The notes beneath the pieces were generated by a model, which was given only the letters and a program-made list of their open reading frames with translations, was not told the DNA's origin and did not search any database. DNA of 64,000 nt from Amphiscolops sp. MND2022 (lineage: Eukaryota): positions 79,734,001-79,798,000 of the forward strand of contig OZ076409.1 in assembly GCA_964187785.1 (NCBI GenBank), read 5' to 3'. This document shows, in pieces, positions 1,698-59,533 of the stretch. The position numbers and the translations under genes were made by a program. Every line of letters begins with the position of its first letter. Within the stretch, counting starts at the first letter, position 1.

Positions 1698-1752
1698 TCA
1701 TTTTGCAAGTCAGATCGAATTTTAAATGTAGTAATTTTGAATAAAATTTCAG

Positions 1753-16099: not shown

Positions 16100-19000
16100 A
16101 GTAGAAAAATTGCAAAAATTTACAATTTTTTACGTTTTATTGCAATTTTGTCAATTTTCGATAGATGTCGTGTATTAGAATGTTGAAAAGGTTCAAAAGG
16201 GCAAGAATTCGTTGTTCAGTAGTTCTTTATGAAGATATGAACGCGGTTTTTTTGGGAAGAAAAAGACCCAAAAATGACAAGAAAAAACAAAAATTTTCCG
16301 ATTTTTAACATTTTTATGCATTTTTTGTCATATTTTCGATAGACTTCGTGAATTAGAATGCTAAAAATGCACAACATGGCACTAATTTGTTGTCCAATAG
16401 GTTTCTCCGAAGAGATATTTGCTGTTTTCTGAATGAAAATGTCTCAAATTGACACAGAAAAAGACAAAAATCCCAAAAACTTTCGAATTTTGAAAAGATT
16501 TTATGCTTTTTTTTTTCAAAAATTTGACAGACTTTGTAGATTGGAACGTTGAAAGGGGTCAAAAAAGAAAGAATGTGTTGTCCGGTAGGTTTTTCCGAAG
16601 AGTTTATTGCAGTTTTTTTAGTGAATGTGTCCCAAACTGAAACCGAAAATGACAAAATTCTAAAATTTTCAAACTTTCAAAGTTTTTATGCATTTTTTGT
16701 TAAAGTTTCGACAGACTTCGTGAATTGGAATGTTTTTAAGGGTCAACAAGGAAAAAGTTGGTTGTCCAGTAGTCTTTTATGACGAGATAATTGCAATGTT
16801 CTGAATGAAAATGTCTCAAATTGACACCGAAAATGTCAAAATCTCAAAATTTTCCAATTTCTAAAGATTTTATGCATTTTTTTCCAAACTATTGACGGAC
16901 TTTGTAGATGAAATGTTGGAAAGCGTCAACGAAAAAGGAATGTGTTGTTTAGTAGGCTTTTCAGAACAGTATATATAGCAGTTTTCATAGCGAAAAAATC
17001 TCAAATTCAAATCGAAAATGCCAAAAACCCAAAACTTTCCATTTTTCAAAATGTTTGGGCATTTTTGTTTCGAAATTTGGAAAAACTTCGTGGATTGGAA
17101 TGTTTTAAAGGGTCAACAAGGAACAAGTTGGTTGTCCAGTAGTCTTTATTGAAGACATAATTCCACTGTTTTGAATGAAAATGACTCATATTGACACCGA
17201 AAATGACAAAAGTCCCAAAATTTACCAATTTAAAAAATTTCATCTATTATTTTTCAAATTTTTGGCAAACTTCGTCAACTGGAACGTTGAAAAGGGTCAA
17301 CAAGGAAAGAATATGTTGTCCAGTATGCTTAGAAAAGAGATAAATGCAGTTTTTTAAACAAAAAGTTTCCGGAATTGACACTGAAAAGACAACATTTCGA
17401 ATTTTTCTTCGAGTTTCACTATTTTTGTTCAATTTTTGTCAAAATTTTTCCATTTTTTAACGTGTTTATGCAAATTTTGTCATATTTTTGATGGACTTCG
17501 TGGATTAGAATGCTGAAAATGCACAACATGGCACTAATTTGTTGTCCAATAGGTTTCTCCGAAGAGATAGTTGCTGTTTTTTGAATGAAAAAATTGTCTC
17601 AAATTGACACAGAAAAAGACAAAAATCCCAAAAACATTCGAATTTCAAAGATTTTATTCCTTTTTTTCCAAACATTTGACAGACTTTGTAAATTGGAACG
17701 TTGAAAAGGGTCAAAAAAGAAAAAAAGTGTTGTCCAGGTGGTTTTTCCGAAGAGTTAAATGCAGTTTTTCTTTAGTGAAAGTATCCCAAACTGAAAATGA
17801 AAATGACAAAATCCCAAACTTTTCCAACTTTCAAAGTTTTTATGCGTGTTTTGTTAAAGTTTCGACAGACTTTGTGAATTGGAATGTTTTTAAGGGTCAA
17901 CAAGGAAAAAATTGGTTGTCCAGTAGTCTTTTATGACAATATAATTGCAATGTTCTTGTATGAAAATGTCTCAAATTGACACCGAAAATAACAAAATCTC
18001 AAAATTTTTCAATTTCCAAAGATTTTATGCATTTTTTCCAAACTATTGACGGACTTTGTAGATGAAATGTTGGAAAGCGTCAACGAAAAAGGAATGTGTT
18101 GTTTAGTAGGCTTTTCAGAAGAGTATACATAGCAGTTTTCTTAGCAAAAATATCTCAAATTCAAATCAAAAAAGACAAAATACCCAAAACTTTCCAATTT
18201 TCAAAATGTTTGGGCATTTTTCTCTCGAAAATTTCGAAAAACTTCGTGGATTAGAATGTTTTAAAGCGTAAACAAGGAACAAGTTGGTTGTCCAGTAGTC
18301 TTTATTGAAGACATAATTCCACTGTTTTGAATGAAAATGACTCATATTGACACCGAAACAGACAAAAATCCCAAAATTTACATATTTTAAAGATTTCATC
18401 TATTATTTTTCAAATTTTTGGCAAACTTCGTCAACTGGAACGTTAAAAGGGTCAACAAGGAAAGAATATGTTGTCCAGTATGCTTACAAAAGAGATAAAT
18501 GCAGTTTTTCAACCAAAAATTTTCCGGAATTGACACTGAAAAAGACAAATTTTCGAATTTTTCTTCGAGTTTCACTAATTTTGTTCAATTTTTGTCAAAA
18601 TTTTCCCAATTTTTAATGTTTTTATGCAGTTTTTGTCATATTTTTGATAGACTTCGTGGATTAGAATGCTGAAAATGCACAACATGGCACTAATTTGTTG
18701 TCCAATAGGTTTCTCCGAAGAGATAGTTGCTGTTTTTTGAATGAAAAAATTGTCTCAAATTGACACAGAAAAAGTCAAAAATCCCAAAAACTTTCGAATT
18801 TCAAAGCTTTTATTCCTTTTTTTCCAAAAAGTTGACAGACTTTGTAGATTGGAACGTTGAAAAGGGTCAAAAAAGGAAAAAATGTTGTCAAGTAGGTTTT
18901 TCCGAAGAGTTTATTGCAGTTTTTTTAGTGAAAGTGTCCCAAACTGAAAATGAAAATGACAAAATCCAAAAGTTTCCAACTTTCAAAAATTTTATGCGTT

Positions 19001-22000
19001 TTTTGTTAAAGGTTAGACAGACTTTGTGAATTGGAATGTCTTTAAGGGTCAACAAGGAAAAAGTTGGTTGTCCATTAGTCTTTTATGACAAGATAATTGC
19101 AATGTTCTAAATGAAAATGTCTCAAATTGACACCGTAAATGACAAAATCTCAAAATTTTCAAATTTCCGAAGTTTTTATGCACTTTTTTCCAAACTATTG
19201 ACGGACTTTGTAGATCGAATGTTGGAAAGCGTCAGCCAAAAAAGAATGTGTTGTTTAGTAGGCTTTTGAGAACAGTATATATAGCAGTTTTCTTAGCAAA
19301 AATATCTCAAATTCAAATCAAAAAAGACAAAAATCCCAAAACTTTCCAATTTTCAAAATGTTTGGGCATTTTTCTCTCAAAAATTTCGAAAAACTTTGTG
19401 GATTAGAATGTTTTAAAGCGTCAACAAGGAACAAGTTGGTTGTCCAGTAGTCTTTATTGAAGACATAATTCCACTGTTTTGAATGAAAATGACTCATATT
19501 GACACCGAAACAGACAAAAATCCCAAAATTTACATATTTTAAAGATTTCATCTATTATCTTTCAAATTTTTGGCAAACTTCGTCAACTGGAACGTTAAAA
19601 GGAATTGACACTGAAAAAGACAAAATTTCGAATTTTTTTCAAGTTTCACTATTTTTGTTCAATTTTTGTCAAAATTTTCCCAATTTTTAACGTTTTTATG
19701 CAGTTTTTGTCATATTTTTGATGGACTTCGTGGATTAGAATGCTGAAAATGCACAACATGGCACTAATTTGTTGTCCAATAGGTTTCTCCGAAGAGATAG
19801 TTGCTGTTTTTTGAATGAAAAAATTGTCTCAAATTGACACAGAAAAAGACGAAAATCCCAAAAACTTTCGAATTTCAAAGATTTTATTCCTTTTTTTTCC
19901 AAAAATTTGACAGACTTTGTACATTGGAACGATGAAAAGGGTCAAAAAAGAAAAAAAGTGTTGTCCAGGTGGTTTTTCCGAAGAGTTAAATGCAGTTTTT
20001 CTTTAGTGAAAGTATCCCAAACTGAAAATGAAAATGACAAAATCCCAAACTTTTCCAACTTTCAAAGTTTTTAGGCGTGTTTTGTTAAAGTTTCGACAGA
20101 CTTTGTGAATTGGAATGTTTTTAAGGGTCAACAAGGAAAAAATTGGTTGTCCAGTAGTCTTTTATGACAATATAATTGCAATGTTCTTGTATGAAAATGT
20201 CTCAAATGGACACCGAAAATGACAAAATCTCAAAATTTTCCAATTTCCAAAGATTTTATGCATTTTTTCTAAACTATTGACGGACTTTGTAGATGAAATG
20301 TTGGAAAGCGTCAACCAAAAAAGAATGTGTTATTTAGTAGGCTTTTGAGAACAGTATATATAGCAGTTTTCTTAGCGAAAATATCTCAAATTCCAATCGA
20401 AAGTGACAAAAAACCCAAAACTTTCCAATTTTCAAAATGTTTGGGCATTTTTGTTTCGAAATTTGGAAAAACTTCGTGGATTGGAATGTTTTAAAGCGTC
20501 AAAAAGGAACAAGTTGGTTGTCCAGTAGTCTTTATTGAATACATAATTCCACTGTTTTGAATGAAAACGACTCATATTGACACCGAAACAGACAAAAATC
20601 CCAAAATTTACATCTTTTAAAGATTTCATCTATTATTTTTCAAATTTTTGGCAAACTTCGTCAACTGGAACGTTAAAAGTGTCAACAGGGAAAGAATATG
20701 TTGTCCAGTCTGCTTTGAAAAGAGATAAATGCAGTTTTTTAAACGAAAAGTTTTCGGAATTGACATTAAAGAAGACAAAATTTCGGTTTTTTTCGAGTTT
20801 CACTATTTTTGTTCAATATTTGTCAAAACGTCGATAGATTTCGTGGACTAGAATGTTAGAACGCCTAACATATGGGCTTTCGTCTCGAGATAAGTTCAAT
20901 TGGTATAAGGAAATTGCCTCAAGTTGACCATGAACTGTCAAAAAATTTGATAATTTTGTCGTTTTTGATGCATTTTCAATACTTGTTCCAAAAGATTTTG
21001 TTCTAAGTTCCAACACATTGAACTCAACAACAAAAAAAAACGAGCTTTGCATTACAGTTTTTGAGGAGAACGTTGCCGCGTTTTGCTTCAAAAACACTTC
21101 AGAATGACTCCTAAGCAGTCGAAAAATTTCAACAACTTCGTTTTTGAGGAACTTGTGTACTCTTTGAATCCTTTTGAAGTCAGAATGCCGGAAGACGTTC
21201 AACAAAGACTGGATGCATAATCCAGTAGGCTTTTAAAGGAATATCTGCAGTCTTATGTTGGAAAATAGCTCGAACTGGCCGCAAAAATTTTCAGTGAATT
21301 TTTATTTGAGGTTGGAAGATTTCGATTTAAAAAGTTTCTAAAAGTTCGAGATGATAAATCTAGGTCCGAAGCACGTTTCTCAAAATCCCTTTTTTATGGT
21401 CGAAAATTTCCTCAAAAGGACCCAAATATTGGAAAAACTGAGAAACTTTTATGTTCTTTTACTATTTTAGGCAGTTTTCTGAACAATTTTTGAGCCACTC
21501 CCTTGCACAAAATGGTATAAAAAACTCAACAATGTTTAATCCGGGTATCTCCAGTAGGCAATTTTGGAGAGAAAACTGCACTTGTTTGTTGGAAGTTGCT
21601 TAAAAACACCCAAAATTCCGTGAAACAACAAAAAAGCACGTTGTTTGACAAACTAATCCCGTTTTTTGTTCAAACCACGAAAGTTTTTGAAGAATAGAAC
21701 CTCCAATTGACCTGAGCGTTGAAACAAAAGGGTATTCGGTATTAAAAACGCAAATGGGGAAAAAGTGGGATGAAATTCATCAAGTTTACAACAACAGTGT
21801 CAAAGTTTCCGAATTTTCGTTATTTTAGACAACATTGTCCCAAATTTCGACCCTTTTCGAAAATAAACGTCAAACAGAAATACCAAAGGCTCAGGATTGA
21901 AATGTGTAGCTACCGGTAGTGTTTCGAAAAGATATCAGATAAGTTCATTTGCCCAACTTTCAAAAACTTTACTTGAAAATGCAAATCTCGACATTATTTG

Positions 22001-26300: not shown

Positions 26301-27716
26301 TGTGGACACATGCATGTCCTTTTGCTATCTTTGACCCTTAAATATGACCCGACCTATGTCGTTCACGGATGGTTATTTTTATTTTTATCATTTCCAATTT
26401 TGACCAACGATGATACGTATGAATCTAATTGTGATTTAATTTTAATGTTGACTGTCAGTGACACGAATGAATTAACTATAGAAATGTATAGGAACGTGCT
26501 CTCGGAGTTGTTACAATTTAATCAGAAAAAGGTTGTTTGGCTGCTTTTATACCCTCATAGAGTCGTTACTTTGCTCGTTTGGAAATGTTTAAAGAACGTA
26601 CTGAAAACATAGTCTGTCTTTGTAATTTAATAGAAAACGAACAAAACAATGACATTAGGTAGCACAAAACAAGTTTGGACAAAAGTGTATCTTCATCGAT
26701 TTAAACAATTTTAAAAGCGTTTGAAGCGTCATTCCTCCGCTGCTTTCCTACCCTGAATTTGATTCTGTAAGGGCGCCGAGGAATCCTTTTGACCTCCGTC
26801 CACGTGGCTTGTTACGTCATTTGATTGAAACATCTCAATTCGCGAAATCTGTGGCTTGCACTTCTGCACTCTGTTCAACAATCGCCCTGGGCGAGTTTCG
26901 AGCTATATGAAACAAGAGAACTGTATATAGATGTTTAGGAATACGCTTCCGGAGTTGTTACAATTCAATCAAAAGAATGTTGTTCATACGCTCGTGGAAT
27001 CGTTCTAGAATTGTGTAAAGAACGAACGGAATAATCAAATCAAATTTTATAAGTATAATGAACAAAACAATTATGGATATCTCATTTTTGAAAACAAAAG
27101 TGCGAAAAAAACAAATTGGGACGAAGCAGAACAGAATTATCATGAAATCAGAAAGTGTGTATGTGTGCGTGTAAATCAGTGTGTCGATTCTTTATCGACT
27201 TATTTAACTTGGGAAAGCGTTTAACGAATTGAGAAAAGCTTCTGAAGATTCCAGAACGACTTTAATGCAAATTATCTACTTGTTTGAAGAATCCAGAAAA
27301 GTGTACAACAATTCACAAAAGTGTTAAAGAATTCACAAAAGTGTTCAAGAAATGACAAAATGCGAAGAATTCTCACACCAATGTTGCTACCTGTGCAGCA
27401 TAGATTATCATTAATATGAAGAATCCACGAAGCATTTTTTGCATTTCTGAAAAAAATCATTTTTGCACTGCGATCATTAGTATGTGGATTCTTCAATCAT
27501 TTTGGCGGCACGCTCAGTTTCTTTGAAGTGCAGATTTTTGTGAAATCTTGAAAATACATTTTTGTAGGTGCGAACATCAACTTTTGTCAATTCTTGAAAA
27601 AATCAGAACTTACCTTATTGGCGTCGTAATGGACTCACAATGAGATTCTCTTCTATACGAAAAATCCACGTGAATTGCGGCTGTAGCATTGGACTTCAAA
27701 TCAACGTTTGGAACAC

Positions 27717-30700
27717 TGTAGGATTTTTGACTTTTTCGCCTGAAACATGGTGTTTATTAAATTTTATGCCCTCAGCAAGGTAGATGATCCGGGTGTGATA
27801 TCTATGAAATTAAAGATAACAGTAAGTACTTCAAGTACCTCGCCTTATTGTTTAATGTCAATACTATTGTATTCAGCCCCGCGGACAACCAAAATAACCA
27901 TTCTTAGCTGCTATGAAGCGGCCGCGCAACGTATTAATGCAGTAATACGGCCGCCACCACTCAGAACTGTGTAGGAAAATTCTAATCGAAAAGAAACTTT
28001 GACATCGAATTTCTCGGCAATTATTGCTAATACAAGAAAAATTAAACCACCGAAATGTTCCTATTTGACCTGACTACGTGTTGAGTAAACATTTAAGAAC
28101 TTTAAACCAACGTATCCCCACAAAAATTGAACCTAAAGTCATCATTGACTGAGAATAGAGATTTAGCCAAATTGCTATATTAATACATGTGTTTGAGGGT
28201 AAGCGAGTGTGCGTGAACAGCATAGAATGCAACTCAGCTAAGCGTGTCAGAAAGCGAAAGGAATGAAATTAAGAACGCGCTGTGAGTGGCTGTACACATA
28301 GCTAATAAGAAAACGGCCGCCGCACACTTTGGAAATATCCCCTCTCTTAATGCAAGTTAAAAATCAAAACGCGATTTCTCAAAGATGGAAAAAGATATCG
28401 ACAAACGATTTTCAGCATTCGACAGCCCGTCCAAAGGAAAGTTTAGGTTGAGATTATGAGCCCCGTGCAATGACGAGAACATATTTGGGGGGAGCTTTGA
28501 AAATAAGTGCGTATAAAATGTTGACGATTTTCCAAAAATGAGTTTCCTTTAAAAATTTCGTGTGATCGCTATAGTTGTAAAAAAAGGTTCGGATATAGCT
28601 TAAATTAAAGATAAATGAATGCCCTAACTGTTGTCAAATGGAAAATAAATAATAATCAGTAGTTTTTGAGAACTGAGCCAGCAAACGTTAAAAACAGCCC
28701 TAAAATGGCCAAATTAGCCGTTTTTCGCATGTTATCGCTTAGTACTCAACGAGTAAGCGCACAATAGCCGCCCCCTTCACAGCGTACTTGTGAATTGAAG
28801 TGGAGGAGTGAATAGAATAATAAATAGAGTGCTGCGGCGCGCTAGCGAAGAACACCCAAGATTTCAAAGTCGTGATTTCTTTCTGCCGATAGGGATGTCG
28901 ACCTACCAAAATGCTAACTCCCCCCCTGCACGTTTTGGGCGATATCGAGCTGAAACTTTCAGGGTAGACGCACAAGACTCAGGCGCACAGCGTTTAGCGG
29001 GAGCGTTTTTCCGAAAAATGCCCTGGTTTCGAGATATTGGCCTCCAAAATTGAAAGTCCAGACATAAAAATTGGGAAAAAGACTACTTTCAGAAAAAGTA
29101 CTATCAAATTTTGTTGAGAAAAGATAGAGACTTTATCTAAAGTGCAAAATACTCCTAATGGCTTGGGCTAGCGATGTATATAAGCCTCCACTCTGTATCT
29201 TTCAAACTGACTGAGTACGAGCCCTCCAAAGTTGAGAGTTTTGCAAATGTCATCACGTGTTTTTTTTCTACCAAACTTTAAGGGCGTTTTACACCGTTAG
29301 TGAGTTGAAATAGAAAGATAATGATTGATAACGTTTTTGTAGCCCTTGGATTGTTCTGTCGAATAGTTAATTTGGTTTCAGCCCCCGGTGATCGGAACAG
29401 CAAGTTTTTGCCCTTAGAATGCGTAACACGAAGATCGACTTTTCAGGACATAAAATAAGTTCGCCTTTTGGGTCATTGTAAATTGTAGAGAGTTATTTCC
29501 TTCAGCCAGATTTAGCTAGAGAGTTGTCAGGAACCGTGTGGGAAAAAGAGACCTGGCAAAAGGTGCAAATGTCAATCAGTAAGCCGAAGTTCAAGTCGTG
29601 CTTACAAAAGTGGGAAAAACTGAGTCAGTAGCACCGCCCCTTAAATTCTATCGAAAACGAAGTAAAACCACCAGTCATGATTGACAAGGAGGTGGAACCA
29701 GGACTGACTTGTGATGAGAAAATGTACTCCTGATGAATTTTTAGTACCGAAGTAGGGAGAACTGTCTTACTCAACACTTAGTCAGGCCCCCAAAAAGGAA
29801 AGATGACAAATTACGAATACTCAAATGACTAAACTGCCGAAAAAGTAACTTTGGCCGAAGTGTGCGCCATTTTAGCGACACACACCGTGAGTTACAACCT
29901 AGAGAACAGTTTGACTTATTGTTGTGTTGGCGATTTTTATCTGCAGCTACAAGTGAGGTGGAACTCCAAGACCTTGTGTTGAGATAACTTCGGAACAGGA
30001 TTTTGTCGTAAGTGAGGCGGAACTCCAAGACCTTCTTCAAGATCCTTAGCTTCAATCGTGAGTGAGGTGGAACGCCAAGACCTTCGTTGAAGCGTTCCAA
30101 TCGTGCGTGAGGTGAGACTCCAAGACCGTCGTTGGAACAAACCGTTGCAATCGCGAGTGAGGTGACTCCAAGACCTCCGTTGTGGCACCCGTTCTCGAAC
30201 CCTGTTCAATTGTGCGTGAGGTGAGAATCCAAGACTGTCGTTGAACATTCTTGTACTCTTATTCGTGCGTGAGGTGTTGGACTCCAAGACCGTCGTTAGG
30301 ATACAATTGCTTTCACTCCAAGACCGATAGAGATTTGCGGCGAGTTGCTTTGTTCGATATATTACTGATATCACTCCCTATCCTCACGGATAACCAAAAT
30401 CAACACCTTGCTAGAACCCTGCTTATTAATTGAATGTGTTATATGCCTTCTAATTTTAGCTGTAATATTCACCGTATTTATCGATGTTACCTCATAGTAC
30501 ATTCTATTATTCGTGGTTGTGAAATTGTGTTTGTGTCTATTAATCGTCTTATATTATTATTTTGTATTATTTGATGTTCAAACTGCTCTTTTCATTCGTG
30601 AAAAGACCCCTCTCGTATTTTTAACAGCCTAAGAGTAGCGAGACAAACCCCCGAGAAAGAGACCTGATAGCAAAGATAGTCAAAGAACGTGATTTCCTAG

Positions 30701-30879
30701 TCACACTTACTCCCACCGTCTTCAGCTGTATTGATTCGTCTTTGCATTTGAAGTTAAAATAAATTTATGTAGATACTCAGCCATTTCTTGTCTCGTGATT
30801 GGTACCTACGGGTTTAATTGAGTGGTAGTGGAGCAATCTTATGTATTGTTAAAGCTACCGTAATTCCAAAAATCTTACA
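27717..30879 (+). repeat. 5' LTR (3163 bp)
   Basis: TGTAGGATTTTTG...CAAAAATCTTACA (12/13 inverted termini); direct repeat of 39947-43099; AATAAA at 30758. Confidence 0.97.
29953..30325 (+). repeat. Repeat-spacer array in the 5' LTR (7 full + 1 partial GTGAGGTGGAACTCCAAGACC-like repeats, unique spacers)
   Basis: Repeat starts at 29953, 30012, 30062, 30107, 30157, 30216, 30269; partial at 30315; periods 45-59 bp. Confidence 0.9.
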
Positions 30880-30880
30880 T

Positions 30881-30898
30881 TGGCGCTCCTGGGTGGGC
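30881..30898 (+). promoter_or_regulatory. Primer-binding site, probably tRNA-Asn
   Basis: TGGCGCTCCTGGGTGGGC begins 1 nt after the LTR. Its reverse complement GCCCACCCAGGAGCGCCA resembles the metazoan tRNA-Asn(GTT) 3' end (human ..GCCCACCCAGGGACGCCA). Confidence 0.75.
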
Positions 30899-30990: not shown

Positions 30991-32303
30991 ATGTCTGCGG
31001 ACGACGAAACCGAGCAGCAGCAATCACCCACTTGTAAACCACCCACTTGTAAGTCTACTAGCTTTTCCCTCATAGGATCGGCCGCCATGACAAAAGAACG
31101 TAAACAAGATGCTTACAGGTGGAAGAGAGATTTAGAAAAAGAAAAGAAACGTATAAAACTCGAAGAAGACCTTGATTCTGATGATTCCTTAGCACCCGAA
31201 AATGAATCTAGGCGAAAACAAAAACCTCTGTACGAAAAATCACCGTTTAAACCAGAAAAATTCCCCAGTAAAGATTACAACCGTTGGGAAAATTGGGTAA
31301 AATATTTCATGGCAGTTGCGAAAGCCAATGGGTGGAATGATAGTCAAAAAATTGCCGCAATGCCCACTTGTTTAACTTCTTGGGCCATCGAAAAATTTGA
31401 AACTGTCGCCCGAAGGTATATTACAAAAGAACCTGGTTGTTATCACCCCCGGTTTGACGAACTCCTTGAAGTTTTAAAACCTAAAATGCAACAGTACCGC
31501 AGCCAGCGAGCTACACGGTCCGAGTTTAAAGCTGTTAAACAATGGGAAAATGAAGACTTAAGAGAATACTCGAGACAAGTACGCTATCTCGCTGATATAG
31601 CTTTTCCCGAAAAACCGCTCCGGTAAAGGGAGCGGGACATGCGAGATCAATTTATCGAAGGAGTACTTGACTCGCGAATACAAACTAAATTGTATGAAGA
31701 CGAGCGTGACCGTGATTTGCAAAGAGCAAAAGAACTCGAAATAATCCACAAGACTCAAGAATCGAGAAAAGACCGGAAATTCGATAAACTCCGCTACTCC
31801 CAAAATGAATTCGGGTATTCCGATACAGTAAGAGCTGGCTATTCAAACAATAATCAAATTGACAAAAAAATTGCAGCTATCGAAACCTCGTTAACCAACG
31901 TGGCAAGTCGTTTTGATCGTTTTGAAAATTCAATTTGTCAACACATCTCCAAGCATACTGAACAAATCTCGAAATTGGCCAATTCAACAACCATCCAAAT
32001 GGAAACGCTGGTACAGAGTGTAAAAGACATGTCATCAGCGATTGTAGGAGCGTTGGAAAGCTCGCAACGGCCGGTTGGTGGGCAACCCCAGAACTAGCAA
32101 TCTCTTTGTTCGCAACCCCCTGTAACCCCTACCCCTTTTGTACATCCGACTAGGGTTGCACCGTCAGGACATGTAAACATTACGTACCCCCCTCCGGAAA
32201 AAGCAGAATGCTTCCGGTGCAGTCTAATAGGACATTTCGCAAAGGATTGTCCGGCGCGATCCAAACAACATCCTTTAAACTACCATCAGCCGAGTATGCA
32301 GTA
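30991..32303 (+). pseudogene. gag: gag with two in-frame premature stops (31624, 32095)
   Basis: ORFs at 30991 and 31639 share a frame. Capsid-like WENWVKYFMAVAKANGW..MRDQFIEG. Read-through gives CCHC knuckle CFRCSLIGHFAKDC at 32209-32250. Confidence 0.9.
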
Positions 32304-32350
32304 GCAGGTTCTATTCGTGCTTGGGATATTATCCCCTCTCCTACTGCTAC
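32274..32350 (+). promoter_or_regulatory. -1 ribosomal frameshift signal (gag-pol)
   Basis: T TTA AAC in the gag frame at 32274-32280; the -1 frame is the open ORF ..FKLPSAEY. Downstream stem CCGAGTATG/CGTGCTTGG. Confidence 0.75.
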
Positions 32351-34434
32351 AAACTTTCCTAAAACGAATCCGCTTATACGCCCTAGGTCTAGGAGTGACG
32401 AAAGTCGTTTGCGACAGCAAAACCGAAGTAGGCGTATTGATCCGGAAGTTTGGCGACAAATGAGTGAAAAATTTGTCCCCAGAGGGTTCTGTCCGAAGGA
32501 CCCAAATCTTTCCGTTGCAAATAATCCCCCTCAATCAACGGTTTTTGAAGATAAACAAGTCGAGCCCGGTTTGGTAAGAATTTGCCCCAAATCTGGCGTA
32601 GGCTTTCCGAAACAAAACCTGCTGGACGCAGAAGAACTAATACCGATCACCCATAGCAAGTATGTTCCAGGCGCGACTTTTTTTAGTTCCCTACGAAGTA
32701 AAAAATTTCCGATGTTGGGCCGTTATAGATACCGGAGCGAGCAGAAGTTTAATGAGCTTAGAATTAGCACAGGCGATCGGTAATCCGATAACTCCTCACA
32801 ATAGTCGTCTGACCGGCCCCATAGCTAACGAAATGCCGACAAAAGGCATCATAAAAGCAGAAGTAAAAATAGGAACACTTGTAGCCATGGATGAATTTGT
32901 GGTTGTAGAAGATCTACATCCAGAGATATTAGTCGGATTGAAATTCTTAATGGAAAACCAATGCACGGCAGATATGGTCGAAGAAAAGCTAACTATTCCC
33001 CAAGACGACGGTTCAATCGTCAAGGTACCGATGCAAATCTTAGGAGGGCTCATCCTTCCTTCGGAAGAGGACGCCTTTGTTTCGAAACGGTACCAGGCCC
33101 TGACACCGTGTCAGCGGCTTCCGAAACTAACGAAAAATTCGAGCAGGATGTTGACGAAATTTTAAATTTAGCCACCCCTGGTCTCGGAAACCCCGAAATA
33201 AAGAAAAAATTACGAGTGCTTATTCGTAATTATAGAGACGTGTTTTCCCTGCCCGTGGACCCGTTAGGAACTGCGGTAGGAGTAGAACACCACATCGACA
33301 TAGGCGACGCGAAGCCGTTTAAAATATCGCCCAGACGGAGGGTTATACGAATGTCTAAAAACGCCGTTTGGTTTGACGAACGCCCCGCCGACTTTCCAAA
33401 GGAATATGAACAACATATTCAAAGACGACCTCTATAAACACGTGCTGATATTCCTAGATGATGTACTAACGTTTAGTAAAACTCCGGAGGACCATTTGGA
33501 GCATTTGGAAAAAGTGTTTAGAGTATTGCGCAAGTCTGGCTTGAGGCTTAAACCAAAGAAATGTAACTTGTTCCGCACTGAAGTCCACTGTCTGGGCCAT
33601 GTGATAATTAAGGAAGGAATCCAACCAGACCCAAAGAAGTTGGCGGCAATTCGCGAATGGGAACGACCGACTGACGTTACGGGAGTCCGCTCATTCGTCG
33701 CGTTCTGCAATTATTACCGGAAATTCGTCCAAAACTTTGCAAAAGTGGCTCGCCCACTTTATTTATTGACTAGCAAAGGCCTCAAGTTCACCTGGACCGA
33801 AGAGCATGATCAAGCGTTCCAAACGCTGAAGAAAAAGTTGTTGGAGGCTCCGATCCTAGCCTTCCCAAATTTTGAACTCCCGTTCATTATTGATACGGAT
33901 GCTAGTGAGACTGCGCTCGGCGCAGTACTGTCTCAAGTGATCGACGGAACGGAGTATACGATCGCCTTTGAATCTCGAGTTTTCACCAAAACCGAAGTAA
34001 ATTATGCCACGACCAAACGAGAAGCACTTGGATTAATCCAAGCGGTTCAATGGTTCCGACCGTACATATACGGATCAAAATGCATTATCCGAACAGACCA
34101 CGCAAGCCTGCAGTGGTTGTTTAGGCAAAACGCAGATGGAATGACCTTCCGGATGGTTCAAAAATTGCAGGAGTACGACTACCAAATCGTACATCGACCC
34201 GGCGACAAGCATTGTAATGCGGATGGTCTCAGCAGGAGACCAAATGACGTACCACTGTGGCTCCCAGGCGAAGAAGAAACACTAAGAGGTCCGATCCCGG
34301 AATTTACTGAATTTGACAGTGCCCTGTTCGAAGCCGAACGCGACCTACAGGCCGCCAGCACTAAAGCTCGAGAGACGAACGATTTGTCGGAGGATATAGC
34401 CCGGCATTTCAAAATGAAACTCGCTCACCCTCCA

Positions 34435-34860
34435 AGAGAGGTAGTCCGCTATCGCGAAGCAGATTTCCTCGAATCACCAGATTCTTTGGTCTTGTGCATC
34501 GCCGCAGATAAGAGAGTGTCTACCGCTCCTATGAAGTCTTTCATTAGGTCGTATTCTCATCTATCACCCCTCGGAGAATCGGTGAATCGAGTGGGGGGAT
34601 TTCTGGTATACAAGGACGAAAACCATGAGCGTTACGTATATCTATTGATTACGAAACCCCCAATAGAAGAAGTAGCAAAAAATGACACTTTGAAAGTCTG
34701 TCTACTGAGGATGAAAGAACATGCTAGTTCGCACGGAGTCCCTAAACTTGCGATGCCCCGAATAGGCTGTGTTGAGGATGAATTGGAATGGGCAAACGTA
34801 GCGATTTGTCTAGAGGTCGTTTTCCAAGATTCGTATGTTACGATTTCGGTGTATACACCT
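34435..34860 (+). other. TARG1/OARD1-class macrodomain within Pol
   Basis: DSLVLCIAAD..RYVYLLITK..MKEHASSHGVPKLAMPRIGCVEDELEWANVAICLEVVF..ISVYT parallels human OARD1 as recalled: [57 protein letters not shown]..ITVYT. Confidence 0.88.
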
Positions 34861-37156
34861 CGAAATCAAGTACTCAAATACCCTCCCACTTTGCCTAGGC
34901 AAAGTACTTCCACCTCCACAAGTAAAGATCTCGCCTGCTCCGTTGCTACTCCGGAAGAAATGTTAGCAGCAGAGGAAGTAGACGGGCATATTTCGTGGAC
35001 TAGATCAGATAGTGATTTGGCTTATGGCCAACGAATGGATAGAGGCATGGGATTATTATTTCGGGAAATGGTACGGAATGGCATTCGAATAGATGGTTCT
35101 GTAGAAAACCTAGGACCTAACCCAATTCCTCGTGAAGTCGCGTTAACATGGAGTTGTCCAGAGGCCCTGGAGCTCTGGAGTAATTGGGAACACCTCGCCC
35201 TCGCGAATCGGGTTCTTTATAAAAGGTGGGACCCCGGTAATCGTGGTCGAGAGATCTGGCAAGCCGTAGTACCGGCGAGCATGCGAGACGAAATATTGTA
35301 TCAGTTGCATGACTCCCCTCTGAGCGGAGGTCATTTTGCAGTAGAGAAAACCATGTCACGAATTAAACAGAGTTTCTGGTGGTCGGGGCTTAGGCCCAGT
35401 GTCGAGAAATATATTGCAAAGTGTACCCGCTGCGCCGCGTGGTCAACCGCGGGAAAAACTCGGAAAGCTAGTCTGCAAACAATCGATGCGAAGGCGCCAT
35501 TTAGTATTGTAGCAGCGGGTATTTTAGGACCGGTAACACTAGCGAAGAAGTCACAGGCACGATACATCTTGGTCATTTCCGATTTGTACACCAAGTATGC
35601 GGTTGCCGTACCTTTGAAAGACATGACGTCTAAAATTGTGGCCACTTCTTTAGTCGAAGAATGGATCTTAAGGTTTGGGGCACCCGATACTTTGCACACT
35701 GATCAGGGAACGAACTTTAATAGCGAAGTGATGAAAGACATTTGTCAGGTCTTTATGATCGACAAGACTAGGACTTCTCCGTACCACCCTCAGGGAAACG
35801 GCCAGGTTGAACGTTTTAATCGAGTGATTGCCGATACCATATCGAAATTTTGCGCAGAAAAGTCTCAGGAAAGGGACATGTATTTGCCCTATGTTACTTT
35901 CGTGTACAATACGACCGTGCATAAGACTCTCGGCACTACTCCGTTTTCCATGTTGTATGGAAAGGAAGCTCAATACCCGATTGACCTATACTATCCAAAA
36001 CCTCCCGGAGATCCCCGATTGGAGTTAGATGAGATGGGTACCGAGTTAAATGAAAAATTGTACGAAGTACATAGTCACGCGCAAATGACTATGGGAAAAG
36101 AACAACGCCGACAGAAGGAATATTATCAGAGAAAAATCCACAGAGGACCATTTAATCCAGGAGACTTAGTATGGTTACTTGAACCACATCGAGCGAAATC
36201 GCGAAAATTTTATCTCCCCTGGCGCGGTCCATACGAAGTGTTGAAACGAACGAGCGAAATGAATTATCAGATTTGTAAAAAAGGCTTCCCCGACAAGTGG
36301 CAAAATGTCCATTTCAACCGCTTAAAACCGTACATGGGTGAATCACCTCCGAAACGCTCCGAACGGTTAGCCTCCAAGCCGACTCCGAACTTCGAGGAAC
36401 TAGTTGAGGAATCCGATCCCTCCGATACCGAGACCGAAGAACAAACATTCCATGTGTACCGCCCTACTTCGGCGGAAACACAAGCCAATAAAAATCAGCC
36501 TCACGTGTCGTTTCACGACGGCCCCCGCGTGATAGATGTAGAAGACGAGGAGAATACTCGTCTGACTAACAGCCCCTTGTATATAAATGTCCCCGAGTGT
36601 TCCAATGCGGAGTCGTCCCCCGTATATGAAGAAATACACGAAGGAGAGGGACAGCCCCTCCCAGATGACGACGACTCGAACGCAAGTAACCACTCAGACT
36701 CGCTACTCCTAGAAAATACACGGAATCGTCGACCGCCAATCCGCTTCGGCATCGACGAGTACGTGGTACATCCAAAATAACATCAGAGTCTTCGGATGAA
36801 AGTCAGGTGAGTTGAGTCATCCGAAGTAAAGAAGCTCATCATTCGCTTAGCCGTTCACGAGCATGCCTAAGCGAATTATCGTAAGCTCGGACCGTTAATT
36901 AGAAGGTGCTGAGTCATAACTGTAGCGTCACTGACGTCGCTACCGACTCCCCTTCATACTTTGCTTTAACCTCCGCTTAAACAGTCGCTAAAATAGAAAC
37001 GTTGCAGTTTCAATTCCTGCAATCTATTTAACCGGCCTTTGCCTCAAGTATTTATTGTCGTTGTGATCGTCCAACTAGTAACCCGCTTACCTCATCCTTT
37101 TTCGCTTTTAATTAGTTTATATCATCCGAATTTGGAATCGCTAGTATAGTCCTGAA

Positions 37157-39400
37157 ATGTTCTGTGTTTACTTTAATTTTTCTCGCTCACTACGTTTTGG
37201 GAGGAGAAGACGCATTCGACCCATTCGAGTTCCAGAGGAGACTCAATCAACCAGGGTTTGTAAATGGCACCCATTCAATTTCTGGCGCAGCGTTCACTCC
37301 CGAACCTCCCGTCGTACTCGTTAAGTCGATCAAAACTATTTGGACCTATATTCCGTTTCCTCAAATCCCTCAGTTAGATCCAGAACCGTTAAACGAAATC
37401 TTGGATAAAGCTTTAGCTCGATTGGTGTCCCTGGACATACGCATGTTTTCACGAGAATGTGCAGACACGCATTTGTTTAATTATTGGAAAGATTTTCTGC
37501 GCGTTAATTTAGCGGAAATTTTTCAAGCCACCGGATGTTTCAACACGACTGGCTTGCAATGCGAAAATCGCTCACCGTTTTTCTCAACCATACCGTAGAC
37601 GATATCCCCCTAGAAAAACCGAATCGTTACGCTAGATCAATTGTCGGGGCCCTTGCAGGATCTATGTTGGGAAGCGAGTTAGCACATCTCTTCCTAAGAC
37701 CGATATTTGGCCCCATACACGAGACGCTCTCCTGCTTCGTAGATGACCTGATCCCCTTTGGATCAGTGTGCCGGAGTAAAGAGAGAAAAATTATCGAGGA
37801 TTTAGCAAGAGAAATTAAAATCCTGCAGGACGAAGTAGTATATTTAAGGTCGGAATTGTTAGAAACCGTCACAGTGAGAATGCCGGCCGACGTCGGAAAC
37901 CGCGAGTTGCTAGCGTTGAAACAATCCCTGGACGAAAATATACAAATGTTAAATAATACGGTAAATGGAGCGATCGATGAGGTATATGATTATGTAGAAA
38001 GGGCGGAATGCGTAGTCAAATTGACTCAAGACCGACACCGTAACACCTTAATAATGGCCGCCGCGTTTCAAACTCTAACCGTGCAATATCGCCGGATCGT
38101 GAATGAGATCAATCAACGCCGCATCTCTCTGTCAAACATGGCGTCGATGTTACAAGAGGCCATCTCTTCTTTAGTCCATGGCTATTTGCCTATTTCTTTA
38201 ATCCCAACTGCAACGCTGAAAAAGATCCTTGATTCGTACCACGTCACCGGATGAAACGAGGCTATTCCGAGGAAATTAATTGCGGCGTACTATTCATTCG
38301 AAATCGTCAGAGATGCATATGTTACGAACGACGGCTTGCATATGCTATTAGAAATCCCGATGTACGCCGGACACGGAATTCACGAGGTGTACCGTGCTAC
38401 GGCCATCCCGCAACCTATTCCAAATACGGAACGGGCAACGCAATACCAGCTTGCGAAAACCCACTTTCTAATGTCGTGGGACAAGACGAATTTTGCGGAA
38501 GTCCTTGAACAAGAGTTGTCGACGCATTGTTGGGGTTCTCATCGACTTAGGCTATGCAAGCAACCCTTCTCTACTACTAAGTCGCAGAAAACAACATGTC
38601 TAACTGGCCTGTTCTTTAACCTCCCCGCCACTGTACTAAAACTGTGCGCTCAGGAGGTAGTGGCCCTTCCGCAACATCCCCAGGCCATCTATTTATATGA
38701 CTCCACGTATTTACTAACGTCAGCGAAAGGGGATTTTACCATGCAAAATGTGACTTCTACTGTGGATTATCGAGTACCAGACTGTCAAAGCTGCCTAGTG
38801 AGACCTACTTGCGACGGAAGATTACAACTCCCCAATGCAGGTTTGTTTCTTACCCCGGACCCGATATCTTGCGCCGATAACCAAGTTAGCGAAATTGTCA
38901 GAATTATGCCGACTCCTTTATTGAGACCCCTGTTTGAAAATCTAAAAGAGTTAGAAGGAGTGATTCCTCCCTCCTTAATGGGAGACGTACACCAAGAACT
39001 TTTGTCACACTTGAAATTAAATTTGGCAGGCTTGCCAGACAGGGCTATTACCGAAGAAATGGCAGATGCTATAGCTAAGCCCTTTTTAATCGAAGTAGAA
39101 AAAGTTCACTCCACCGTCCTAAAGAAAGTGTGGACAGATGTTATTTTACCATGTGTTGTTACTCTGATTATTTTAACTTTCTTGGGAATTCTATGCTGGC
39201 TGGTAAAGAGGGGACAACTGTACATCATGCGTGCCTGTATACAACGACTGCTGAGAAGGGGAGACGAAGATGAACCAGAAGAACAACGATTGTCCAGAAT
39301 TGCAGATGAGCTACAACAACTTTCTGCCTCCACCCGAACCGATGGGAATGCGAAAACTCCTGATCTTCCCCAAGGAGAAAAGAAGCCCCGATCCAAGTAG
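37157..39400 (+). pseudogene. env: env, class I fusion glycoprotein (errantivirus/baculovirus-F-like); frameshift ~37530, in-frame TGA at 38252
   Basis: Signal-peptide-like N-terminus; RYAR cleavage site then hydrophobic SIVGALAGSMLG; heptad repeats; GYLPISLIP and LEIPMY..VYRATAIPQP; Cys-rich region; C-terminal TM VILPCVVTLIILTFLGILCWLV. Confidence 0.85.
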
Positions 39401-39933: not shown

Positions 39934-39946
39934 AAGTAGGGGGGAA
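39934..39946 (+). promoter_or_regulatory. Polypurine tract
   Basis: AAGTAGGGGGGAA directly before the 3' LTR. Confidence 0.9.
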
Positions 39947-42900
39947 TGTAGGATTTTTGACTTTTTCGCCTGAAACATGGTGTTTATTAAATTTTATGCC
40001 CTCAGCAAGGTAGATGATCCCGGTGTGATATCTATGAATTTAAAGATAACAGTAAGTACTTCAAGTACCTCGCATTATTGTTTAATGTCAATACTATTGT
40101 ATTCAGCCCCGCGGACAACCAAAATAACCATTCTTAGCTGCTATGAAGCGGCCGCGCAACGTATTAATGCAGTAATACGGCCGCCACCACTCAGAACTGT
40201 GTAGGAAAATTCTAATCGAAAAGAAACTTTGACATCGAATTTCTCGGCAATTATTGCTAATACAAGAAAAATTAAACCACCGAAATGTTCCTATTTGACC
40301 TGACTACGTGTTGAGTAAACATTTAAGAACTTTAAACCAACGTATCCCCACAAAAATTGTACCTAAAGTCATCATTGACTGAGAATAGAGATTTAGCCAA
40401 ATTGCTATGTTAATACATGTGTTTGAGGGTAAGCGAGAGTGAAAACTCCGCCGTGTGCGTGAACAGCATAGAATGCAACTCAGCTAAGCGTGTCAGAAAG
40501 CGAAAGGAATGAAATTAAGAACGCGCTGTGAGTAGCTGTACACATAGCTAATAAGAAAACGGCCGCCGCACACTTTGGAATTATCCCCTCTCTTAATGCA
40601 AATTAAAAATCAAAACGCGATTTCTCAAAGATGGAAAAAGATATCGACAAACGGTTTTCAGCATTCGACAGCCCGCCCAAAGGAAAGCTTAAGTTGAGAA
40701 TATGAGCCCCGTGCAATGATGAGAACATATTTGGGGGAGCTTTGAAAATAAGTGCGTATAAAATGGTGACGATTTTCCAAAAATGAGTTTCCTTTAAAAA
40801 TTTTGTGTGATCGCTACAGTTGTCAGAAAAAGATTCGAATATGGCCTAAATTAAAGATAAATGAATGCCCTAACTTGTGTCAAATGGAAAATAAATAATA
40901 ATCAGTAGTTTTTGAGAACTGAGCCAGCAAACGTTAAAAACAGGCATAAAATGGCAAAATTAGCCGTTTTTCGCATGTTATCGCTTAGTACTCAACGAAT
41001 AAGCGCACAATAGCCGCCCCCTTCACAGCGTACTTGAGAATTGAAGTGGAGGAGTGAATAGAATAATAAATAGAGTGCTGCGGCGCGCTAGCGAAGAAAC
41101 CCCAAGATTTCAAAGTCGTGATTTCTTTCTGCCGATAGGGATGTCGTTCTACCAAAATACTAACTTCCCCCCTTCGCACGTTTTGGGCGATATCGAGCTG
41201 AAACTTTCAGGGTAGACGCACAAGACCCAGGCAAACAGCCTTTAGAGGGAGCGTTTTTCCGAAAAATGCCCTGGTTTCGAGATATTGGCCTCCAAAATTG
41301 AAAGTCCAGACATGAAAATCGGGAAAATGACTACTTTCAGAAAAAGTACTATCAAATTTTGTTGAAAAAAGATAGAGACCTCATCTAAAAAGCAAAATAC
41401 TTGTAATGGCTTGGGCTAGCGATGTATATAAGCCCCCACGCTGTATCTTTCAAATTGACTGAGTACGAGCCCTCCAAAGTTGAGAGTTTTGCAAATGTCA
41501 ACACGTGTTTTTTTTCTACCAAACTTTAAGGGCGTTTTTCATTGTGAAGGAGTTGAAATAGAAAGATAAAACTAAATAACGTTTTTGTAGCCCTTGGAAT
41601 GATCTTTCAAATGGGAAACATCTGGTTTTTGCCCTTAGAATGCGTAACACGGAGATTGACTTTTCAGGACATAAAATAAATTGCCTTTTAGGTCATTGTT
41701 AATTGCAGAGAGTTATTTCCTTCGGCCAGATTTAGCTGAGAGAGTTGTCAGGAACCGTGTGGGAAAAAGAGACCTGGCAAAAGGTGCAAATGTCAATCAG
41801 TAAGCCGAAGTTCAAGTCGTGCTTACAAAAGTGAAAAAAACTGAGTCAGTAGCACCGCCCCTTAAATTCTATTGAAAACGAAGTAAAACCACCAGTCATG
41901 ATTGACAAGGAGGTGGAACCAGGACTGACTTGTGATGAGAAAATGTACTCCTGATGAATTTGTGGTACCGAAGTAGGGAGAACTGTCTTACTCAATACTT
42001 AGTCAGGCCCCCAAAAAGGAAAGATGACAAATTACGAATACGTAAACGACTAAACTGCCGAAAAAGTAACTTTGGCCGAAGTGTGCGCCATTTTAGCGAC
42101 ACACACCGTGAGTTACAACCTAGAGAACAGTTTGACTTATTGTTGTGTCGGCGATTTTTATCTGCAGCTACAAGTGAGATGGAACTCCAAGACCTTGTTT
42201 TGAGATAACTTCGGAAAAGGACTTTGTCGTAAGTGAGGTGGAACTCCAAGACCTTCTTCAAGATCCTTAGCTTCAATCGTGAGTGAGGTGGAACGCCAAG
42301 ACCTTCGTTGAAGCGTTCCAATCGTGCGTGAGGCGAGACTCCAAGACCGTCGTTGGAACAAACTGTTGCAATCGCGAGTGAGGTGACTCCAATACCTCCG
42401 TTGTGGCACCCGTTCTCGAACCCTGTTCAATCGTGCGTGAGGTGAGAATCCAAGACCGTCGTTGAACATTCTTTTACTCTTAATCGTGCGTGAGGTGTTG
42501 GACTCCAAGACCGTCGTTAGGATACAATTGCTTTCACTCCAAGACCGATAGAGATTTGCGGCGAGTTGCTTTATTCGATATATTACTGATATCACTCTCT
42601 ATCCTCACGGATAACCAAAATCAACACCTTGCTAGAACCCTGCTTAACACTTGAATGTGTTATATGCCTTCTAGTATTAGCCGTAATATTCACCGTATTT
42701 ATCGATGTTACCTCATAGTACATTCTATTATTCGTGGTTGTGAAATTGTGTTTGTGTCTATTAATCGTCTTATATTATTATTTTGTATTAATTGATGTTC
42801 AAACTGCTCTTTTCATTCGTGAAAAGACCCCCTCGTATTTTTAACAGCCTAAGAGTAGCGAGACAAACCCCCGAGAAAGAGACCTGATAGCAAAGATAGT

Positions 42901-43099
42901 CAAAGAACGTGATTTCCTAGTCACACTTACTCCCACCGTCTTCAGCTGTATTGATTCGTCTTTGCATTTGAAGTTAAAATAAATTTATGTAGATACTCAG
43001 CCATTTCTTGTCTCGTGATTGGTACCTACGGGTTTAATTGAGTGGTAGTGGAGCAATCTTATGTATTGTTAAAGCTACCGTAATTCCAAAAATCTTACA
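39947..43099 (+). repeat. 3' LTR (3153 bp)
   Basis: Direct repeat of the 5' LTR, followed by TSD AACAC. Confidence 0.97.
42174..42546 (+). repeat. Repeat-spacer array, 3' LTR copy
   Basis: Same units and spacer order as 29953-30325, with a few substitutions. Confidence 0.9.
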
Positions 43100-43492
43100 A
43101 ACACGTCGAGAACTTTCACTAACTATTTATCGGAAATAGTTTGTCGTAACAAGGGAGCAAAAAAAATTTCAAAATGCCCTCAAAACCTTTTTGTCGTGTT
43201 TTCCTTGATATTATTCGTCACAGATTTCAACTACAGAAACAGTAGCTATACGGCAGAGTTCCGTATGAAAAATAAGAAGCTTTTTGTAAGTTCATTGAAA
43301 AAGCCACAAAGCGCTCCATAAATGCAAAAAGTTCTTTTCAAAAAATTTTTTGAATGAAAGTGCCATAAATGAATCAAATCTTTTATAACAATTGTCAAAA
43401 CTTTTAAGACAAATTGAATCATCTGAATTTTTGTGTCACCTTCGTAGTGTATCTATCAGCTACGCTCGAACCCTGAAATTATGTTGTCGCTA

Positions 43493-44302
43493 CCCTGGTC
43501 GAGAAAAAATGCGTTCCTTGCAAGGATCTTGCAAGATCCTTGTAAAAATGCAATTACTTGTAAGATCTTCCAAGGAAATTTGTTCCTTGCAAGATCTTGC
43601 AAGGAAATGTTTTCCTTGAAAGACCTTGCAAGGAAATGTTTTCCTTGAAAGATCTTGCAAGGAAATTTTTTCGTTGAAAGATCTTGCAAGGAAATGCTTT
43701 CCTTGCAAGATTCTTGAGTTCAATGTACTTCATACTGAGAAATTATGTTAAGGTAGTCGTGATTTGAGAATAATGTCAAAAACGTTAATAACTATTATTT
43801 CAGAAAGGTAATTTAACAAATTGAAAAATAATTTCAATCGAAACATTATGCACAGTCTATTTTCAAATCAATAACTGGTACATAACACAATTGGTTGGAA
43901 AAAATTTTCAGAATACTCTGAAACTGTATTTTAAATGTTGCGTCACTGAAATGTACTACTACTTTTCAAATAACTTCACTAAGATCACACTTTTAGAGAT
44001 ATTTTCTAGAGTTTGCATCTTTTTGGTGGTTGAATCCTCTAGTAAGTAAGCCCCGTTCTGTGACAGAATCTAATAGTCACGATGCAGTAGTCAACTTGAA
44101 GTCAAAAACAATGAATATAAAAAATAATAAAAATTGTCGAGAACCTTCCACGAAATTTTTCTCCTTGGAAGAATCTTGCAAGGAAATTTTTTTCTTGCAA
44201 GATTCTTGCAAGATGTCTTGGAGAAAAATGCATTATCTTGCAAGACCTTGAAAGAAAATCTTGCAAGATCCTTGCAAGGAACGCATTTTTTTTCAACCAG
44301 GG
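43493..44302. mobile_element. MITE with CCCTGG..CCAGGG long inverted termini and TA TSD
   Basis: ~45-bp terminal inverted repeats; TA on both sides; many TCTTGCAAGR subrepeats at both ends. Confidence 0.85.
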
Positions 44303-56519: not shown

Positions 56520-57206
56520 CTAAAGTAGACAAAAAGGCTTGTTAAGTTTTTTGTGTATGTCATAACCATCATCATTTTCACTTTGTTCAGAATCTTCCAA
56601 ACATTCCATTTGATGATTTGAAAGGTTATTTGCTGTTGTGTTTAGTCTAGGAAAATTCTCTCTTGAGTCCTGGACCTGTTGGCTGAATTTATTTTTATGC
56701 CGTCCATATGACCCAAGGTCCACAGTCTGGTCCATAGGGACGTTTCTACTCGGATGCCGTCCATCTGACCGAAGGTCCAATTTCGCGTTCTTAGTCTCCC
56801 TATGATTTACTATGACATTTTCGATGCTCGGTAGTATTTTTTCATCGATAGCGGAGTTTATTACCTCCATAATATGGGAATTTAGATCAGATTTCATTTC
56901 TTCCAATTTCCTCGACATCTGTGAAGAAATTTCTGAACTAATTGCTCTACTAGTTTCTACTGTAATTTCACTATTCTCACTCAAATTTGTATTCAAAAGA
57001 GATCTATAGTTGCTTTCTTCTTGCCTGAAACCTTGTTGCCGTCTACTTGACTCAGGGTCAATTTCTATTTGATCTACCGTGTTTTGGTCTCTAATTTCGC
57101 TGTTTGAGTAATTTCCAAGCATCACATCAAAATTTTCAATATCTGACATTACGTCAGACTGTCTAGAACGTTTCTCTCTTGCTTTCTGCTTTCTAGTTGA
57201 AGGCAT
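56520..57206 (-). CDS. Orphan repeat-borne ORF (basic N-terminus, coiled coil); possible gag-like leader
   Basis: ~228-aa open frame from ATG 57206; TATA-like box ~60 nt upstream; paralogue at 48803. Confidence 0.55.
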   Translation of the reverse strand: MPSTRKQKAREKRSRQSDVMSDIENFDVMLGNYSNSEIRDQNTVDQIEIDPESSRRQQGFRQEESNYRSLLNTNLSENSEITVETSRAISSEISSQMSRKLEEMKSDLNSHIMEVINSAIDEKILPSIENVIVNHRETKNAKLDLRSDGRHPSRNVPMDQTVDLGSYGRHKNKFSQQVQDSRENFPRLNTTANNLSNHQMECLEDSEQSENDDGYDIHKKLNKPFCLL

Positions 57207-59471: not shown

Positions 59472-59533
59472 GTAATAATGATAGTAATAATAATATTAAT
59501 AATAATAATAATAATATCAATAATAATAATGAT
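59472..59533. repeat. (AAT)n microsatellite
   Basis: Imperfect AAT run. Confidence 0.8.

Follow-up and report, generated by a model that had tools for sequence, protein, structure and literature searches.

A TARG1-type macrodomain with a substituted pocket in the Pol of a Ty3/gypsy retrotransposon with an env-like ORF

The Pol polyprotein of a Ty3/gypsy element in Amphiscolops sp. MND2022 carries, in frame between RNase H and integrase, a macrodomain of the TARG1/OARD1 type with an altered pocket. We judge it rather probable that a captured TARG1-type domain kept its fold and lost its pocket glycines, and that it is now likely a dead pseudoenzyme, likely kept to bind protein on the RT-RNase H side of Pol. 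The copy analyzed lies in a 64,000-nucleotide stretch of contig OZ076409.1, here called the window, and has the following parts.

27712-27716 (+): left target-site duplication, AACAC, identical to the five bases at 43100-43104
27717-30879 (+): 5' LTR, 3163 bp, TG...CA termini
30881-30897 (+): primer-binding site, complement of the 3' end of host tRNA-Asn(GTT)
30991-32301 (+): gag, with an internal stop that breaks it in this copy (Retrotrans_gag, E 0.004)
32274-33338 (+): 5' part of pol with aspartic protease (gag-asp_proteas, E 7.7e-9)
33337-33606 (+): C-terminal part of reverse transcriptase (RVT_1, E 3.5e-19)
33793-34239 (+): RNase H (RT_RNaseH_2, E 5.8e-34; RT_RNaseH, E 6.8e-30)
34240-34443 (+): linker 1, its first part shared with the macro-less sister family K
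34444-34857 (+): TARG1/OARD1-type macrodomain, altered pocket
34858-34983 (+): linker 2, rich in S/T, with the lowest conservation in the bridge
34984-35268 (+): pre-integrase segment, by eye like the "mini" domain found in the bridge of Ty3/gypsy Pols that lack a macrodomain
35269-36330 (+): integrase, with H2C2 finger, core and p58 C-terminal domain
37170-39400 (+): env-like third ORF, broken in this copy
39934-39946 (+): polypurine tract
39947-43099 (+): 3' LTR
43100-43104 (+): right target-site duplication, AACAC

The TG..CA LTRs, target-site duplication, tRNA primer-binding site, polypurine tract and the order gag then protease, RT, RNase H and integrase are those of a Ty3/gypsy LTR retrotransposon. 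The two LTRs show 112 mismatches over 3133 aligned sites, and for the primer assignment ARAGORN called tRNA-Asn in one of the two loci scanned. The window gag matches the natural copy L051 at 67%, the 5' part of pol is frameshifted and the start of RT is partly missing. Linker 2 has 52% identity between subfamilies A and B, with a dN/dS of 0.28. The name "mini" for the pre-integrase segment is taken from the available text of PMC13524379. The env-like ORF is probably F-type: it has a basic cleavage-like motif followed by a hydrophobic stretch, and a late hydrophobic segment. A homologue in L119 matched Baculo_F at E 2.6e-5 (23.5 bits, just under the cut-off of 24.1), and the best matches in an atlas search were F proteins at 0.93-0.94, with low recognition; direct Pfam and PDB searches returned no match. 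In subfamilies B and C a fourth ORF of 282-306 amino acids lies between env and the 3' LTR (L052:916-1761, L054:524-1441). Its core is 62% identical and has no Pfam match, and the window copy contains no match to it. Both window LTRs hold short imperfect repeats (29960-30330 and 42180-42520) with the core GTGAGGTG...CTCCAAGAC.

Other features lie elsewhere in the window. An array of diverged ~185-bp units showing higher-order periodicity at ~1.15 kb occupies 16143-20800 and 9050-9630, and a palindromic 29-bp tandem repeat (43525-43740) lies ~400 bp to the right of the element. A 462-amino-acid frame at 1665-3053 (+) matches DUF4639 (E 4.8e-25) and is likely a host gene, and a hydrophobic 296-amino-acid frame at 7852-8742 (-), which has no Pfam match, looks by eye like a multi-pass membrane protein. 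Several long frames on both strands at 56520-63998, with no clear Pfam match, possibly belong to another mobile element; 61553-62446 gave one weak zinc finger match.

The fold of the domain is closest to TARG1, DarG and Poa1p. An earlier note, made from the sequence alone, had described an in-frame TARG1-like insert and proposed an HMM search; the search detected homology to TARG1 along the entire length of the domain (E 2.7e-17; profile probability 99.95% over 137 columns), confirming both the insert and its class. A Pfam search of the full-length Pol did not detect the macrodomain, and an AlphaFold model built from the family alignment only was of too poor quality to use. A chance motif or a neutral insert is ruled out by the homology match, the conservation between subfamilies A and B, and a test of nonsynonymous and synonymous (N/S) copy variants. 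Thus a fold and a profile match were found where the note had named their absence as contrary evidence, and the insert is neither missing from the family nor evolving neutrally.

The 1.07-Gb genome yielded 2738 family candidates, and all 150 that were scored matched, 6 with an internal stop. The family comprises subfamilies A (which includes the window copy), B (1610-aa pol) and C (1619-aa pol) and three further lineages, P0007, P0009 and P0010. The domain persists across lineages that are only 54-77% identical. We chose 30 loci by their RNase H, avoiding selection on the macrodomain itself. All 30 carry the domain, 29 at full length and one covering 100 of 149 amino acids, and none of the 30 is a domain-deleted copy. 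The window copy is broken; the family itself includes intact, recently mobile members, such as a subfamily C copy (L053) with gag, pol and env all open and LTRs 99.8% identical, and many subfamily B copies have an open 1610-aa pol. Between subfamilies A and B the macrodomain has a dN of 0.13, with synonymous sites saturated (pS 0.78), and is 78% identical, against 91-94% for RNase H and the integrase core. Among 28 RNase-H-picked B copies, shared variants had an N/S of 12/26 and singletons 23/15 (p 0.021); a macro-picked set of 32 copies gave 7/24 versus 17/17 (p 0.039). The macro/integrase distance ratio is 2.35 in the window clade and 2.40 in the intact clade, and the macro/RNase H ratio is 3.3 and 2.5, respectively. 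Thirty-three positions are invariant in five window-clade lineages and uncommon elsewhere. The comparison across genomic copies that the earlier note had suggested shows a domain kept family-wide under purifying selection, and the env that the note assigned to the element is present as an env-like ORF.

The pocket and catalytic residues of the domain, in human numbering, lie at these window positions.

34492: H32 replaced by L
34525: G43 replaced by A
34528: I44 replaced by P
34771: G123 replaced by V
34774: L124 replaced by E
34654: K84, catalytic, kept
34777: D125, catalytic, kept

The altered MGAGIA loop and the G123 change recorded in the earlier note are thus present, and they extend beyond this copy: H32, M40, G43, I44, A45, P91 and G123 are replaced in all six window-clade lineages. 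G43, I44 and G123 are absent from 44/44 macro-picked window-family loci and also from the 30 RNase-H-picked loci (29 readable at G123). The 122 homologues without a detected retroelement domain (non-element homologues) keep H32 in 119, G43 in 122, I44 in 111, A45 in 116, P91 in 115 and G123 in 120. The 22 rows of the D/E clade, from co-resident families described below, keep H32 in 22, G43 in 21, I44 in 19, and A45, P91 and G123 in 21 each. The second glycine of the phosphate-loop GxG is Val or Ile in all six lineages and 44/44 copies, and the window clade consequently fails at that glycine the pattern TKx(30,35)Px[IL]GxGxD, whose GxGxD is demanded of TARG1 proteins in the available text of PMC6397177. 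The same loop has acquired an acidic residue (L124 to E in the window). In human TARG1, G43E, I44E and G123E each abolish ADP-ribose binding and catalysis, according to the accessible portion of PMC5928194; lineage P0009 has a natural Glu at G43. The mean net charge of the domain is -2.0 in the window clade (n=6; range -5 to +2), compared to +6.1 in D/E (n=22) and +4.4 in rows of the non-element set (n=62). C33, T83, P118, G121 and W129 are kept in the window clade. The earlier claim that the catalytic Lys and Asp are conserved stands for the window and for D125, which is invariant in 44/44 copies, and falls short for K84, which is found in 39/44 copies and 5/6 lineages and is Arg in the other 5/44, all of subfamily C.

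Because it lacks the GxG and G43/I44 features, the window domain, as judged from its residues, falls outside the active TARG1 family despite its TARG1 fold. The six lineages descend from one ancestor, and therefore the loss of the pocket is a single event rather than six. In the macrodomain tree the window clade sits on a long stem (1.16), which we read as a single loss of catalysis, after which new constraint set in.

A sister family provides a comparison without the domain. The LTR-end/primer-site junction occurs in 595 genome copies. From the first 30 we followed 12 that were a poor fit to subfamilies B and C and to family J, and 3 of the 12 define family K (L288-L290). In one K copy (L288) gag, a 1420-aa pol and env are all open. 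K and the window clade are sisters with 100% support and the bridge flanks of K are collinear, and a macrodomain search of the family gave no match at E 10. Either the window clade cleanly gained the domain, or K lost it. Since K lacks the domain and still has gag, pol and env open, the domain is dispensable as a spacer.

These observations suggest a path in four steps. The domain was gained in, or lost from, an otherwise collinear bridge, because K has the same flanks without it. The ancestral domain may have been an active hydrolase, packaged with Pol and stripping host ADP-ribose from element proteins or from RNA/cDNA, a task that co-resident families with intact domains would be expected to perform even now. 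On the long stem of the clade, pocket residues were replaced, the surface turned neutral to acidic and a new residue set became fixed. Present selection may act on a non-catalytic contact. The earlier note had favored a virion-packaged counter-defense hydrolase; for the window family that is unlikely, with G43, I44 and G123 lost in every lineage and K84 replaced by Arg in subfamily C. The binding-altered domain that the note gave as its second option is the better one, the same three residues being replaced in all copies read. The counter-defense idea fits, on sequence grounds, the other families and the satellite with an intact site.

Some of the evidence speaks against a pseudoenzyme. K84 and D125, together with C33, T83 and G121, are retained as they would be in an altered but active site, the Val, Ala and Pro replacements differ from and are milder than the Glu substitutions made in human TARG1, and RNase H is better conserved than the domain, as the higher distance ratio of the domain indicates. 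It is unlikely, in our assessment, that the domain is still an enzyme, countering host ADP-ribosylation through a remodeled pocket that acts on a different substrate, such as a particular modified peptide or the end of a nucleic acid. P118 and W129 are kept as well, and SCO6735, a bacterial relative, is functional although Gln occupies its Lys position (PMC9967889, as far as its available text goes), so the class tolerates catalytic change. However, such an enzyme would have to work with the G43/I44 loop gone and with a phosphate loop that has lost its GxG, turned acidic and departed from the published pattern at the second glycine, and the recent transposition of subfamily C took place with Arg in place of K84.

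Quite unlikely is a passenger, a once-useful capture now retained only for clean folding within the polyprotein. Family K manages without the domain, many of the conserved residues are core residues, and decayed macrodomains occupy the same pre-integrase position in other Ty3/gypsy elements (L221 and L171; HH-suite probability 94-95% to the intact macrodomain). By contrast, no RNase-H-picked locus of 30 has deleted the domain, it persists across diverged lineages with 33 clade-specific invariant positions, and its rate relative to integrase equals that of the intact clade. We give still less weight to a nucleic-acid-binding module, in which the pocket would be dead but the domain would bind RNA or cDNA and aid reverse transcription or packaging. 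Human TARG1 binds RNA without its pocket, and G43E and G123E still bind, in the accessible portion of PMC5928194. That binding is ascribed to basic patches, however, and net charge in the window clade, a crude proxy, runs only from -5 to +2; its drop relative to D/E therefore weakens this alternative. We prefer a pseudoenzyme retained for a contact other than catalysis, probably with a protein.

An intact TARG1-type query (P0088) and a motif pattern (270 matches, against 4 for the control) brought up many further carriers in the genome. In the 14 stretches that we examined, intact-looking TARG1 domains occupy four positions in Ty3/gypsy elements.

RNase H-integrase bridge: env-bearing families D and E, and L128
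Between protease and RT: L120, L121
After integrase: L122, L129, L130, L123
Behind Gag and protease in an RT-less ORF of 834-845 aa (Gag-protease-Macro): family J (L124-126)

Families D and E differ in their termini and primer sites. L128 was left out of trees and counts, and its architecture was read separately. In the family of L122, L129 and L130, an antisense JmjC-like ORF accompanies the C-terminal macrodomain; it encodes 300 amino acids behind pol (L122:6845-7744 (-), also in L129 and L130) and its JmjC match is weak (E 6.6e-4, below cut-off). The Pol of L123 (439-6213) has a weak dUTPase match (E 0.003) after the protease and an intact-type C-terminal macrodomain, and an antisense 382-aa ORF lies ahead of its env-like ORF. 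L127 is a TARG1 gene of host type, in which the motif set is complete and near which no retroelement domain lies. It has an N-terminal extension of ~175 amino acids in one open frame (L127:5057-6001 (-)) and a partial paralogue ~5 kb away (L135).

Carriers also occur outside this genome, some of them already flagged by database labels. In a weevil Pol (XP_076269006) a macrodomain with an intact site stands in the order RT-RNase H-Macro-integrase finger. In the tree this domain clusters with non-element proteins of beetles (96% support, 50-55% identity), suggesting that it was captured independently. Macrodomains were carried by 27 of 120 returned Pols, and among 54 bridges read (from 84 metagenome/viral loci and 6 proteins) an intact-type domain immediately precedes the integrase finger in 10, and a macrodomain is accompanied by a pseudo-domain in 4; these are not prevalence figures, because the queries included macro-bearing sequences. 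In an RT-RNase H tree (130 rows, 10 left out), the bridge carriers fall into three distinct clades, each with good support. A single origin of all bridge macrodomains is rejected on RT-RNase H (AU p 3e-14) and window plus D/E as one clade is weakly rejected (p 0.031), both values being optimistic because the groups were named after seeing the tree. In the macrodomain tree, a single clade of all element macrodomains is only marginally rejected (p 0.024) and window plus D/E as one clade is not rejected (p 0.82); the window domain may therefore derive by recombination from the co-resident D/E clade. Collectively, these comparisons point to repeated capture of TARG1 by Ty3/gypsy elements, and an unrecognized ADP-ribosylation conflict with retrotransposons is likely.

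Family J is a young non-autonomous element (L124:3219-5720, L125, L126) that encodes only Gag, protease and an intact TARG1 macrodomain, with within-copy LTR identity of 99.7-99.8%. Its LTRs are 87-95% alike with those of K and the U5/primer junction is exact, and K is therefore the likely helper of J. The J macrodomain nests in the D/E clade with 98% support. H32, G43, K84, G123 and D125 are kept in 27/27 J-type loci, from 30 loci that are biased in having been picked by intact-query similarity. The dN/dS of the macrodomain is 0.17-0.30 compared to 0.35-0.55 for the adjacent linker (three pairs). J has shed RT, RNase H and integrase yet retains a macrodomain under selection on Gag, which is the strongest argument from sequence for a use of the intact enzyme in the particle, and we infer that J would deliver this enzyme in trans to K. 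Further RT-less elements have the same primer site as K and J (L291-L293, L299, L296-L298); L291, L292 and L299 have K/J-type LTR sequence and gag followed by a 450-525-aa frame without a recognized domain, and no macro match. A large tandem array of 3' ends resembling tRNA-Asn, the primer tRNA of the K/J and window elements, begins at G000:C7:47639203; there are 379 pattern matches genome-wide, and most among the matches listed are in that array.

The decayed domains of L221 and L171 occur among insect-type elements, and L171 falls in a group with the classical pseudo-domain (91% support). Together with L158, L191, P0308, L179 and L198, they show the pre-integrase domain of insect-type Pols at graded stages of decay. 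The "pseudo-RNase H" of errantiviruses has five strands with the second and third flipped, as described in the available text of Chary & Hayashi (PMC13524379). Compared directly with the macro profile, the pseudo-domain gave a probability of 0.4-0.6% (shuffles up to 2.1%); via the decayed pair this was 5.6-20.8%, and against RNase H itself 0.05%. The profile test thus linked the pseudo-domain neither to the macrodomain nor to RNase H. We take its strand order to be that of the macro core, and a macrodomain origin of the errantivirus pseudo-RNase H is a lead only.

PARP-based antiviral defense was revealed through the macrodomains of RNA viruses. It is possible, and we offer it tentatively, that animal hosts restrict LTR retrotransposons by ADP-ribosylation and that Ty3/gypsy elements answer with many TARG1 captures at several positions, with the J satellite supplying the enzyme in trans to a macro-less helper, the window clade marking a transition from enzyme to pseudoenzyme and the pseudo-RNase H perhaps an end state of decay. 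If so, repeated independent capture of TARG1 would be comparable evidence for ADP-ribosylation defense against retroelements, with Pol, Gag, RNA and cDNA as candidate substrates, and a satellite carrying an enzyme absent from its helper would be an unusual cooperative parasite. The pattern of repeated capture across families is a stronger result than the window domain alone, which offers a clean case of what would be pseudoenzyme birth under continued selection. One genome holds a natural comparison set: intact D/E, the putatively pocket-dead window clade, K without the domain, satellite-borne J and host-type L127.

Among the closest known systems are the "ancient errantiviruses" of PMC13524379, which according to its available text share with the window element the LTR-gag-pol-env arrangement, the order protease, RT, RNase H and integrase, a mini-type pre-integrase segment and an env that in the window element is putatively F-like. 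That survey, in the text available, reports mini and pseudo-RNase H bridge domains; "Macro" is absent as a domain name from its main text, and in its supplement "macro" is part of species names among the matches listed (4 of 10 places). Capture of chromatin domains by retrotransposons is on record (bioRxiv 2021.11.30.470311, available text). Our literature search, with incomplete coverage that took in few subscription papers or Repbase reports, returned no TARG1-type capture by Ty3/gypsy elements and no account of a pocket-dead clade or a Gag-protease-Macro satellite. Fish epsilon-like endogenous retroviruses are, like the window element, retroelements with a captured macro domain (Basta et al. 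2009, as cited in the accessible text of PMC4977317). These are vertebrate retroviruses with macro domains as additional ORFs, a likeness drawn from the description in the citing paper only. Alphavirus nsP3, coronavirus Mac1 and bacterial DarG are only 8-19% identical to the window domain, and the RNA-virus macrodomains belong to another macro class, whereas the window domain is closest to eukaryotic TARG1. Unlike human TARG1/OARD1/C6orf130 (PDB 4j5q, 4j5r, 2lgr), it sits inside a retroelement Pol, with H32, G43, I44, A45, P91 and G123 replaced, L124 acidic and the basic surface lost.
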